Shown piece by piece: positions 11,157 through 11,408 of a stretch of DNA of 64,000 nucleotides. The translations under genes were made by a program, and so were the position numbers. The notes below the pieces were generated by a model, which worked only from the letters and a program-made list of their open reading frames with translations, made no database searches and was not told where the DNA came from. This DNA is from Escherichia phage vB_EcoM_G2469, in sequence record MK327934.1, one strand, 5' to 3'. How positions within the stretch are numbered: the stretch's first letter is position 1; each line of letters starts with the position of its first letter.

Positions 11157-11233
11157 TGGTCGAGACAGAAGGATTCTAACCTTCAACCTACGGATTAGAA
11201 GTCCGTTGCTCTATACAATTGAGCTATGCCTCG
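11157..11233 (-). tRNA. tRNA-Arg (anticodon UCU), non-canonical D and T loops
   Basis: Hand-folded cloverleaf: acceptor CGAGGCA/UGUCUCG with one G-U, D stem GCUC/GAGC, anticodon stem ACGGA/UCCGU with loop CUUCUAA, T stem GAAGG/CCUUC, encoded CCA; D loop lacks GG and T loop is UUAGAAU. Confidence 0.65.
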
Positions 11234-11333
11234 ATGATGCGGCTTTGGGTGTTTCAGTGTTACTCGTTTGTAGGTTCTACTTTTAACCCTTATTCGAACA
11301 ACTTACCTACCTAAGAGCGTACTCACCGCGAAT

Positions 11334-11408
11334 TGGTGGCCCTGGCTGGTTTCGATCCAGCTACCTATCAGTTATGAGCTGACAGCTCTCCCATTGAGCT
11401 ACAGGGCC
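11334..11408 (-). tRNA. tRNA with CAU anticodon (Met, or Ile if C34 is lysidine-modified)
   Basis: Acceptor GGCCCUG/CAGGGCC perfect, D arm GCUC-AAUGGGA-GAGC, anticodon loop CUCAUAA, T stem GCUGG/CCAGC with unusual loop AUCGAAA, encoded CCA. Confidence 0.7.

Follow-up and report, generated by a model that had tools for sequence, protein, structure and literature searches.

Two transfer RNAs with variant loops and a structured spacer RNA in the stable-RNA cluster of Escherichia phage vB_EcoM_G2469

The tRNA locus and its source genome

We analyzed the tRNA locus of Escherichia phage vB_EcoM_G2469 (sequence record MK327934.1) in a stretch of 64,000 nucleotides, referred to here as the window. 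Positions 11,157 to 11,408 of the window hold two tRNA genes and, in the 100-nt spacer between them, an unannotated structured RNA:

11157..11233, minus strand: tRNA-Arg(UCU) with encoded CCA (ARAGORN; Rfam, 71.1 bits; orthologue alignment A4)
11238..11330, minus strand: unannotated structured RNA of about 90 nt (a 93-nt element) in the inter-tRNA spacer (homology and covariation; model R1, 100.9 bits)
11334..11408, minus strand: CAU tRNA with encoded CCA, predicted to be of the tRNA-Ile2 (lysidine, AUA-reading) type (ARAGORN; RF00005, 62.4 bits)

Across the whole window, ARAGORN finds exactly these two tRNA genes, which it labels tRNA-Arg(tct) and tRNA-Met(cat), and both score far above the gathering score (29) of the Rfam tRNA model RF00005. 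Apart from tRNA, no Rfam family reaches threshold anywhere in the window, and at E values up to 10 the matches over 10000-12000 are the two tRNAs and chance-level hits. An original prediction, made by folding the sequence by hand, had proposed only two tRNA genes, with the anticodons UCU (Arg) and CAU. ARAGORN and RF00005 accept both folds and agree on the number and the anticodons, with no additional tRNA in the window (ARAGORN). Both are real tRNAs of a working type, and the genes themselves are ordinary; they carry structural variants, namely a swapped elbow pair and an initiator-like T loop, that were previously unremarked but are explicable. The most interesting content of the interval is the spacer RNA.

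Sequence identity over the region reaches 99.9% with Escherichia phage FL31 and 99.2% with the Mosigvirus vB_Eco_F27, and this similarity places the phage in Mosigvirus, the RB69-like genus of Tevenvirinae. Published Mosigvirus genomes contain two tRNAs each, Arg and Met(CAU), and the RB69 record is annotated with the same two anticodons. By these published counts, the two-tRNA set is an already known trait of the genus. At 95% identity or higher, the Arg tRNA is found in more than 180 phage records and the CAU tRNA in more than 160. The GenBank record of vB_Eco_F27 (OP870146) misplaces its tRNA features by about 346 nt and puts them on the wrong strand: in the locus retrieved from it (L001), they are annotated at 5204-5280 and 5381-5455 on the plus strand, and the real genes lie at approximately 4858-4934 and 5035-5109 on the minus strand.

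The elbow of tRNA-Arg(UCU) and the T loop of the CAU tRNA

The Arg tRNA is parsed as CGAGGCA-UA-GCUC-AAUUGUAUA-GAGC-A-ACGGA-CUUCUAA-UCCGU-AGGUU-GAAGG-UUAGAAU-CCUUC-UGUCUCG-A-CCA. Its D loop, AAUUGUAUA, corresponds to A14 A15 U16 U17 G18 U19 A20 U20a A21, and its T loop is UUAGAAU, with A at position 56. Measured against the canonical elbow (G18 and G19; U54, U55, C56, and A58), the tRNA deviates by having U19 and A56. The absence of the D-loop GG and of C56 had been pointed out in the original prediction, and A56 can indeed be read from the sequence. The prediction had gone on to propose a coordinated loss of the tertiary contact between the D and T loops, and this does not hold: G18 is kept, and G19:C56 is replaced by a U19:A56 Watson-Crick pair. 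The orthologue in Klebsiella phage Phi_KR1, which shares the acceptor stem, has D loop AGCUGGAUA and T loop UUCGAAU. Because the two D loops are equal in length, the difference amounts to G19 to U plus C56 to A, with G18 and A20 retained. Since positions 19 and 56 can still form a Watson-Crick pair next to an unchanged G18, the elbow contact appears to have been rebuilt with a different pair rather than lost.

Comparison of orthologues is consistent with this view. The D-loop GG and C56 are both present in the orthologues of Klebsiella phages Phi_KR1 and F48 and of Mosigvirus mar005P1. D loop AAU(U/A)GUAUA is found together with T loop UUAGAAU in the orthologues of Salmonella phage S16, RB69, and two IMG/VR contigs (L066 and L129). 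In alignment A4 of these Arg tRNAs, all 22 pairs, including 19:56, are 100% paired, and both sides have changed in 16 of the 22; at 19:56, seven rows have GC, four have UA, and one has GU. The variant loops have been retained in S16, RB69, L066, and L129 even though all four stems differ. In L129, both variant loops are kept alongside compensatory changes in every stem (acceptor, D, anticodon, and T). Contig L066 (IMG/VR 2974742932_000001, 169,650 bp, T4-like) encodes seven further tRNAs (Gln, Leu, Gly, Pro, Ser, Thr, and CAU); the occurrence of these T4-like specificities together with a U19:A56 Arg tRNA indicates that the swapped elbow is not tied to reduced clusters. The tRNA-Arg of the RB69 record (L132:8784-8862, AY303349; 79 nt) differs from that of the window only by two additional G in its anticodon stem (ACGGGGACUUCUAAUCCGU); either the record, from 2003, contains a sequencing error here or the stem is disrupted.

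The rarity of the variants was surveyed in 363 distinct viral tRNAs parsed from the fetched loci. C56 occurs together with the D-loop GG in 349 of the 363, and A54 is confined to the CAU family of the window and one Ile(GAU) tRNA. In approximately 99 further viral Arg(UCU) tRNAs whose anticodon arm is identical, the loops have GG and UUC; the only deviations are U56 in one tRNA and C55 in another. Among the phage tRNA families that lack C56, position 19 covaries with position 56 with one exception of six: U19:A56 is found in the Ile-UAU tRNA of L018, A19:U56 in the Arg-ACG tRNA of L120 and the Thr tRNA of L137, C19:G56 in the Leu tRNA of L137, and G19.U56 in L036. A separate deviation is seen in phage tRNAs for Ala, Gly (two), and Arg in the IMG/VR contigs L018, L029, and L134, in which the T loop starts with UCC and C55 replaces the near-universal U55. 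Full-text literature searches on U19/A56 and on G19-C56 in phages returned nothing relevant. The E. coli ArgRS recognizes A20, C35, U36 or G36, and A73 or G73, and A20, C35, U36, and A73 are intact in the Arg tRNA.

The CAU tRNA is parsed as GGCCCUG-UA-GCUC-AAUGGGA-GAGC-U-GUCAG-CUCAUAA-CUGAU-AGGUA-GCUGG-AUCGAAA-CCAGC-CAGGGCC-A-CCA. Its T loop, AUCGAAA, has A54, as previously noted, and also A60; on this account the tRNA likewise departs from the canonical elbow. The original prediction had left its identity as Met, or Ile if lysidine-modified, and the latter is probable on the basis of identity elements and annotation. TilS uses C4-G69 and C5-G68 to distinguish tRNA-Ile2 from tRNA-Met, and the elements used by IleRS are A73, U12-A23, C29-G41, A37, and A38. 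These determinants were reportedly described by Ikeuchi in 2005 and Nureki in 1994. All of them accompany the CAU anticodon in the sequence. In addition, the tRNAscan-based annotation of phage F27 gives Ile2, and the only matches to this tRNA in E. coli genomes are annotated as tRNA-Ile. The first 18 nt are those of T4 tRNA-Ile, after which the sequences diverge. Nolan et al. (2006) found that a CAU tRNA bearing the IleRS/lysidine signature is present in all T4-like genomes that encode tRNAs. We interpret the CAU tRNA as a lysidine-type, AUA-reading tRNA-Ile2 on the strength of these sequence features.

The closest relatives of the CAU tRNA are in Gelderlandvirus and Phapecoctavirus. In Phapecoctavirus ESCO5, the same tRNA, at 97% identity, heads a ten-tRNA cluster that includes a separate Met-type CAU tRNA and an Ile(GAU) tRNA. 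Compensatory changes within the family include 7:66 (G-C or U-A) and 30:40 (A-U or G-C), and T loop AUCGAAA is conserved across these relatives. Judging from these similarities, it is evident that the tRNA has been transferred across unrelated phage families. Eukaryotic initiator tRNA is known to contain an A54-A58 pair, and a review calls U54 otherwise universally conserved. The phage tRNA-Ile(GAU) of L147 (IMG/VR 3300009502_000046), which begins with the same GGCCCUGUAGCUCAAUGG, has D loop AAUGGAA (A20) and T loop AUCGAUA (A54 and A60), and thus contains the full eukaryotic-initiator trio.

Codon usage was counted in a crude set of 74 open reading frames (ORFs) of the window, representing 91% of the DNA. 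AGA occurs at 7.1 per thousand codons (16% of Arg codons) and AUA at 11.8 per thousand (16% of Ile codons). These values are approximately three times those of E. coli, in which AGA and AUA are the rarest sense codons. This usage fits the classical tRNA-supply argument. We propose that both tRNAs are functional decoders of these two codons, which the phage uses heavily: the Arg tRNA would read AGA, and the CAU tRNA, with C34 converted to lysidine by the host TilS and charged by IleRS, would read AUA. The unusual loops would then be tolerated variants that preserve the L-shape rather than signs of decay. In the Arg tRNA, the outermost elbow pair would change from G19:C56 to U19:A56, and G18 (the partner of U55) and A20 (the ArgRS determinant) would be kept. 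In the Ile2 tRNA, the U54-A58 reverse-Hoogsteen pair would give way to a purine pair, A54-A58, accompanied by A60, as in eukaryotic initiator tRNA. With A54, m5U54 cannot form in the CAU tRNA, and formation of pseudouridine at position 55 (Psi55) and recognition by elbow-binding factors may change in the variant tRNAs.

Other interpretations of the two tRNAs differ in how well they accommodate these observations. ARAGORN and most GenBank records label the CAU tRNA as tRNA-Met, and an unmodified CAU anticodon reads AUG, as expected of an ordinary elongator or initiator tRNA-Met that is not converted to an AUA reader. We consider this assignment distinctly unlikely. The TilS and IleRS elements and the T4 tRNA-Ile-like 5' end are present, and annotation that resolves the type (F27), the E. 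coli matches, and the conclusion of Nolan et al. for T4 relatives all point to Ile, and the ESCO5 cluster contains its own Met-type CAU tRNA. A bacterial initiator would have a C1xA72 mismatch and a run of three G-C pairs at the base of the anticodon stem; the presence of G1-C72 and the lack of a G-C run in the stem (GUCAG/CUGAU) indicate that the CAU tRNA is not one. Alternatively, the absence of several near-universal loop nucleotides, together with the eight tRNAs of T4, could be taken to mean that both tRNAs are decaying pseudogene remnants of a once-larger T4-like cluster. Scores far above the Rfam threshold, stems that stay paired through compensatory changes, intact identity elements, and the large number of phage records with close matches make this explanation hardly credible, and the covariation already contradicts it.

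A further interpretation would add to, rather than exclude, functional decoding: the odd elbow and T loop may be adaptive, allowing escape from host factors that recognize this part of a tRNA (for example a tRNA-cleaving toxin, a defense nuclease, or a modification enzyme), so that the phage keeps translating while host tRNAs are attacked. The stability of the variants across genera and through stem turnover and the spread of the A54 tRNA between unrelated phage families at 97% identity are in its favor, as is the proposal that phage tRNAs evade host tRNases, although the published anti-defense argument concerns anticodon-loop changes only. We know of no E. coli nuclease, however, that acts on the T loop or elbow of either tRNA-Arg(UCU) or tRNA-Ile2. 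Canonical G19:C56 persists in close orthologues from Klebsiella phages and Mosigvirus mar005P1, RB69 has a canonical T4-type Ile tRNA, and neutral drift also predicts a compensated swap. An adaptive origin of the loops is therefore rather unlikely in our estimation. Whichever force maintains them, the U19:A56 swap among near-identical orthologues is a clean natural experiment on the tRNA elbow, and a tRNA with the A54/A60 T loop of eukaryotic initiators in a bacterial context is a second one. Both variants bear on how the elbow is read by RNase P, TrmA, TruB, the ribosome, and tRNA-targeting toxins.

A pseudoknotted RNA in the inter-tRNA spacer

On its 5' side the spacer RNA begins 4 nt past the CCA that closes the upstream tRNA, and on its 3' side it stops 5 nt short of the following tRNA. 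Three nested helices are predicted: P1 (11325-11329/11239-11243), P2 (11315-11318/11262-11265), and P3, which consists of P3a (11305-11310/11270-11275) and P3b (11296-11297/11276-11277). Beneath the apical loop, GAA (11293-11295) lies opposite AGUA (11278-11281) in an S-turn-like arrangement, and the apical GGGUU (11285-11289) forms a pseudoknot with AACAC (11257-11261), for which the family consensus after P2 is AACCC. The pseudoknot is nearly invariant, with one compensatory pair, in Rgz1 only, and one mismatch in the copy of the window. A single-sequence fold of the 100-nt spacer is no more stable than shuffled sequences (z = 0.02), and the structure is thus revealed only by comparative analysis. 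In alignment A6, which contains 20 sequences, 96.3% of cells are paired and both sides have changed in 19 of 26 pairs. The covariation score is 0.621, compared to 0.163 for shuffles (0 of 500 reach the observed value) and 0.04-0.09 for slid controls. The strand is fixed by a G.U pair in P2 in 19 of the 20 sequences and by the universal co-orientation with tRNAs. We conclude that the spacer encodes a pseudoknotted RNA whose three nested helices show strong covariation.

Unannotated DNA with 75-85% identity to nucleotides 8-92 of the spacer occurs in phages from widely differing families. These include Klebsiella phage IME260, Pectobacterium phage My1, and Proteus phage Stubb (Demerecviridae); Pectobacterium phage PM2 and Morganella phage Rgz1 (Straboviridae); Erwinia phage Hena1 (Vequintavirinae); Klebsiella phage KP13-26 (Stephanstirmvirinae); and the jumbo phage RaK2. 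In every one of them, the element lies among tRNA genes and on their strand. Fifty phage records match the spacer, only six of them at 95% identity or higher, with FL31, F27, and Ec3-ASingh as the near-identical matches listed. In other Mosigvirus members, the tRNAs are 3-7 nt apart, and spacers of 3-4 nt occur in GADS24 and contig L129. A search with model R1 found no second copy in the window, no copy in 874 kb of other phage tRNA-cluster loci, and nothing in the T4, RB69, and S16 loci; in a further 411 kb of phage tRNA-cluster loci, one weak match was obtained (L133).

A wider search with a strict 24-base pattern identified 47 IMG/VR loci, 13 loci among 185,579 species genomes, and at least 120 in a metagenome collection. 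The 13 species-genome loci are mostly metagenome bins, several of them Patescibacteria. Among at least 132 distinct members with full context, 43 have the topology of the window, open at P1. Sixty-five of the 132 are circular permutations: GCUC, the P2 5' strand, follows the ACCC strand at a distance of 9-38 nt, P1 either forms a closed hairpin or is missing, and the ends of the RNA are at an outer helix beside P3. Fourteen are permuted and sit inside a class-II tRNA-like scaffold, with acceptor, D, and T arms, where they replace the anticodon arm; the topology of the remaining 10 is unassigned or ambiguous. These permutation calls combine a scripted helix check with the reading of examples, and the covariance model covers the frame of the window only. 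An earlier check covered 56 distinct members, 31 of them permuted. In 28 of these 31, unrelated sequences build a perfect 6-bp P3a, and P2 covaries among the members checked (GCUC/GAGU, GCUG/CAGU, and GCAG/CUGU).

The core of the class consists of P2, P3, the S-turn, and the apical-loop pseudoknot, with the invariant strands GAAYAAGGGUU...AGUA and GAGUAACCCYGAAASACCC. It is found in three topologies: open at P1 in tRNA arrays (as in the window), circularly permuted in intergenic regions, and grafted into the class-II tRNA-like scaffold. The class spans Demerecviridae, Straboviridae, Vequintavirinae, Stephanstirmvirinae, Alcyoneusvirus, environmental metagenomes, and Patescibacteria bins. In four of these bins (L211, L213, L220, and L221), the tRNA-scaffolded form lies 1.1-1.8 kb downstream of tRNA-Val(GAC) on the same strand, and recurrence of this arrangement in separate bins suggests a conserved locus. 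Klebsiella phage SmallBear_ER8 has an element of similar design whose sequence differs from the spacer motif. Immediately upstream of its tRNA-Arg orthologue lies a 128-nt feature annotated as a "tRNA-OTHER pseudogene" (L125:1370-1497), which combines an acceptor stem, a T arm, and a class-II D arm with approximately 75 inserted nt where the anticodon arm would be.

Searches for a known identity of this RNA gave no match. Rfam 15 returned none for the minus strand of 11234-11333 at E values up to 10, and on 30 loci holding homologues it reported nothing but tRNA at the gathering score. Literature searches with motif strings and for permuted phage RNA motifs found no description, although the class may be described in work outside their reach. 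The possibility that the spacer is a remnant of tRNA-Gln, which lies there in S16, was dropped because no similarity was evident by eye. A riboswitch or cis-regulatory leader would be expected to precede a consistent class of genes. The downstream neighbors in tRNA arrays are tRNAs, and stand-alone members precede ORFs for DNA ligase, a tail chaperone, an HNH endonuclease, a 2OG oxygenase, DUF3307, and unknown proteins, a heterogeneity that argues against a riboswitch.

By analogy with the HDV-like theta ribozymes, which occur next to phage tRNAs, the spacer RNA might instead be a self-cleaving ribozyme that cuts a polycistronic tRNA precursor. The element's position, a few nucleotides from either tRNA, would suit such a role, and family members are found in phage intergenic regions beside unrelated genes. 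Circularly permuted forms exist as well, and permutation is typical of hammerhead and twister ribozymes. Yet hammerhead, hairpin, twister, pistol, hatchet, and HDV cores threaded on the RNA did not fit, and no known ribozyme family matches in Rfam. Of the features of HDV-like and theta ribozymes, which cleave within about 5 nt of a tRNA, only proximity to a tRNA (4 nt) is shared; the covariation-supported helices are nested with a single apical-loop pseudoknot, in place of the nested double pseudoknot in which P1 and P2 interleave. Moreover, the 14 members in a tRNA-like scaffold would split their carrier upon self-cleavage, and a cleavage site cannot be inferred from the sequence. We regard self-cleavage as improbable.

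The three contexts, tRNA-flanked, tRNA-grafted, and free-standing, fit best a stable module acting in trans. We therefore favor, as a proposal, a stable trans-acting RNA matured by tRNA-processing enzymes: the spacer RNA would be an independent folded module with its three helices, S-turn, and loop-to-bulge pseudoknot, and host enzymes processing the flanking tRNAs would release it. The RNA would act on a protein or RNA of the host or of the phage, such as a translation or defense factor. The full proposition, that 11238-11330 is a member of an undescribed and widespread class of structured phage RNAs with three topologies that acts in trans and uses the tRNA-processing machinery, is put forward tentatively, at somewhat less than even odds. 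If truly undescribed, the RNA is a new entry among the stable RNAs of phage tRNA operons, and this E. coli phage would be a tractable system in which to study it.

The stable-RNA cluster and its known counterparts

Downstream of the two tRNAs on the minus strand, and upstream of them, the window contains the following features:

10794..11141, minus strand: ORF of 115 amino acids, orthologue of RB69ORF150c (ORF list; PHROG 3355, unknown function, E 3e-50)
10678..10797, minus strand: homologue of T4 rnaD, the species 2 stable RNA (107/119 identical)
10533..10671, minus strand: homologue of T4 rnaC, the species 1 stable RNA (138/139 identical)
10463..10490, minus strand: probable intrinsic terminator closing the cluster, GCCCCUUCC-GAAA-GGUUGGGGC followed by UUUUUU (read by eye)
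11471..11497, minus strand: possible T4-type middle promoter, with a MotA-box-like TTTGCTTTA (11489-11497) and -10 TATTAT (11471-11476)

The 115-amino-acid ORF matches no Pfam family above the cut-off. It lies between tRNA-Arg and rnaD, a position without a counterpart in T4, which has one nucleotide there, and its stop codon abuts the 5' end of the rnaD homologue. The rnaC and rnaD homologues are identified by similarity and by their order downstream of tRNA-Arg, which is that of T4. No function is known to have been assigned since the 1970s to the stable RNAs of phage tRNA operons, T4 rnaC and rnaD included. The near-identity of rnaC, compared to 107/119 for rnaD and a tRNA-Arg unrelated to that of T4, points to very strong constraint on rnaC. 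Its homologue contains a canonical T-arm-like CCGGG-UUCGAAU-CCCGG and gives a weak tRNA-Sec-like Rfam match (17 bits, 10534-10626). The stretch of approximately 40 nt from the 3' end of rnaC to the terminator hairpin (10491-10532, minus strand) is also mostly near-identical to T4 within the extent of the alignment, and the mature RNA or a processing signal may thus extend past the annotated end of rnaC. The elements of the candidate promoter, read by eye against the T4 consensus, are 12 nt apart and approximately 60 nt upstream of the CAU tRNA.

T4 has eight tRNAs, segB, rnaD, and rnaC at the equivalent place, which agrees with the number given in the original prediction. Its description of the tRNA genes as a reduced cluster is correct insofar as there are fewer tRNAs than eight. 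The cluster is not a simple trimmed version of that of T4, however: the Arg tRNA is unrelated to T4 tRNA-Arg, with orthologues that share its acceptor stem, the closest relatives of the CAU tRNA are in other genera, and RB69 combines the window-type Arg tRNA with a T4-type Ile tRNA. Treating two tRNAs as the whole cluster also overlooked the rnaD and rnaC homologues and the structured spacer RNA of what is probably the same transcription unit.

We propose that the locus is the upstream part of a Mosigvirus stable-RNA operon, transcribed on the minus strand in the order CAU tRNA, structured RNA of about 90 nt, tRNA-Arg(UCU), small ORF, rnaD, rnaC, and terminator, which encodes functional Arg and Ile2 decoders and an independent spacer RNA. 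We assign this explanation a probability of approximately 0.8. Several points weigh against it. The Lys tRNA of L134 has A19/A56, and an unpaired elbow can therefore also persist. The generic Rfam alignment puts the lone G of the Arg D loop at the other G position, with low posterior probability; the G18/U19 numbering depends on gap-free homology with the orthologues, which we prefer over the generic placement. The comparison with E. coli codon frequencies is a rough one. Lysidine formation at C34 and charging with Ile in this phage are predictions from the sequence, and the promoter and terminator are readings by eye that a consensus scanner for sigma-70 promoters and terminators, which gave nothing useful on the minus strand, did not list, the terminator probably because of two U-U mismatches in its stem. 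Finally, tRNA content and codon bias are poorly correlated in T4 relatives other than T4 (Nolan et al.), which suggests that supply for rare codons may not be the whole reason for carrying tRNA genes.

Comparison with known systems places each component of the cluster. The T4 cluster (Gln, Leu, Gly, Pro, Ser, Thr, Ile, segB, Arg, rnaD, and rnaC) occupies the same position and strand, downstream of the tRNA.2-tRNA.4 genes and ipI, with Ile(CAU), Arg(UCU), rnaD, and rnaC in the same order. The window differs in lacking six tRNAs and segB, in a dissimilar Arg tRNA and a CAU tRNA that matches T4 tRNA-Ile over the first 18 nt only, in encoding the CCA ends, and in having an ORF between tRNA-Arg and rnaD and an extra structured RNA between the tRNAs. 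The sets of RB69 and other Mosigvirus members have the same two anticodons, and the RB69 tRNA-Arg is the same U19:A56 tRNA; in contrast to the window, the Ile tRNA of RB69 and mar005P1 is of the T4 type, has a canonical T loop, and lies 6-7 nt from tRNA-Arg, and the inter-tRNA spacer of GADS24, also a Mosigvirus, is 3 nt, compared to 100 nt.

The CAU tRNA resembles E. coli tRNA-Ile2 (ileX/ileY) in its anticodon loop CUCAUAA and in C4-G69, C5-G68, U12-A23, C29-G41, and A73, and differs in its 7-nt D loop and in having T loop AUCGAAA instead of UUCAAGU. That T loop is identical to the one in eukaryotic initiator tRNA-Met, including the A54-A58 purine pair in place of U54-A58; unlike the initiator, the tRNA is of the elongator type, with G1-C72 and G20 rather than A20, in a bacterial-phage context and with no link to initiation. 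Like theta ribozymes, the spacer RNA is small, structured, and located a few nucleotides from phage tRNA genes on the same strand, but it has nested P1, P2, and P3 with one apical-loop pseudoknot and no HDV-family match in Rfam. The T4 species 1 and 2 RNAs (rnaC and rnaD) are stable non-tRNA RNAs of a phage tRNA operon, as the spacer RNA would be, and both kinds are presumably released by tRNA-processing enzymes; the spacer RNA has no sequence or model similarity to them and is spread across many phage families.

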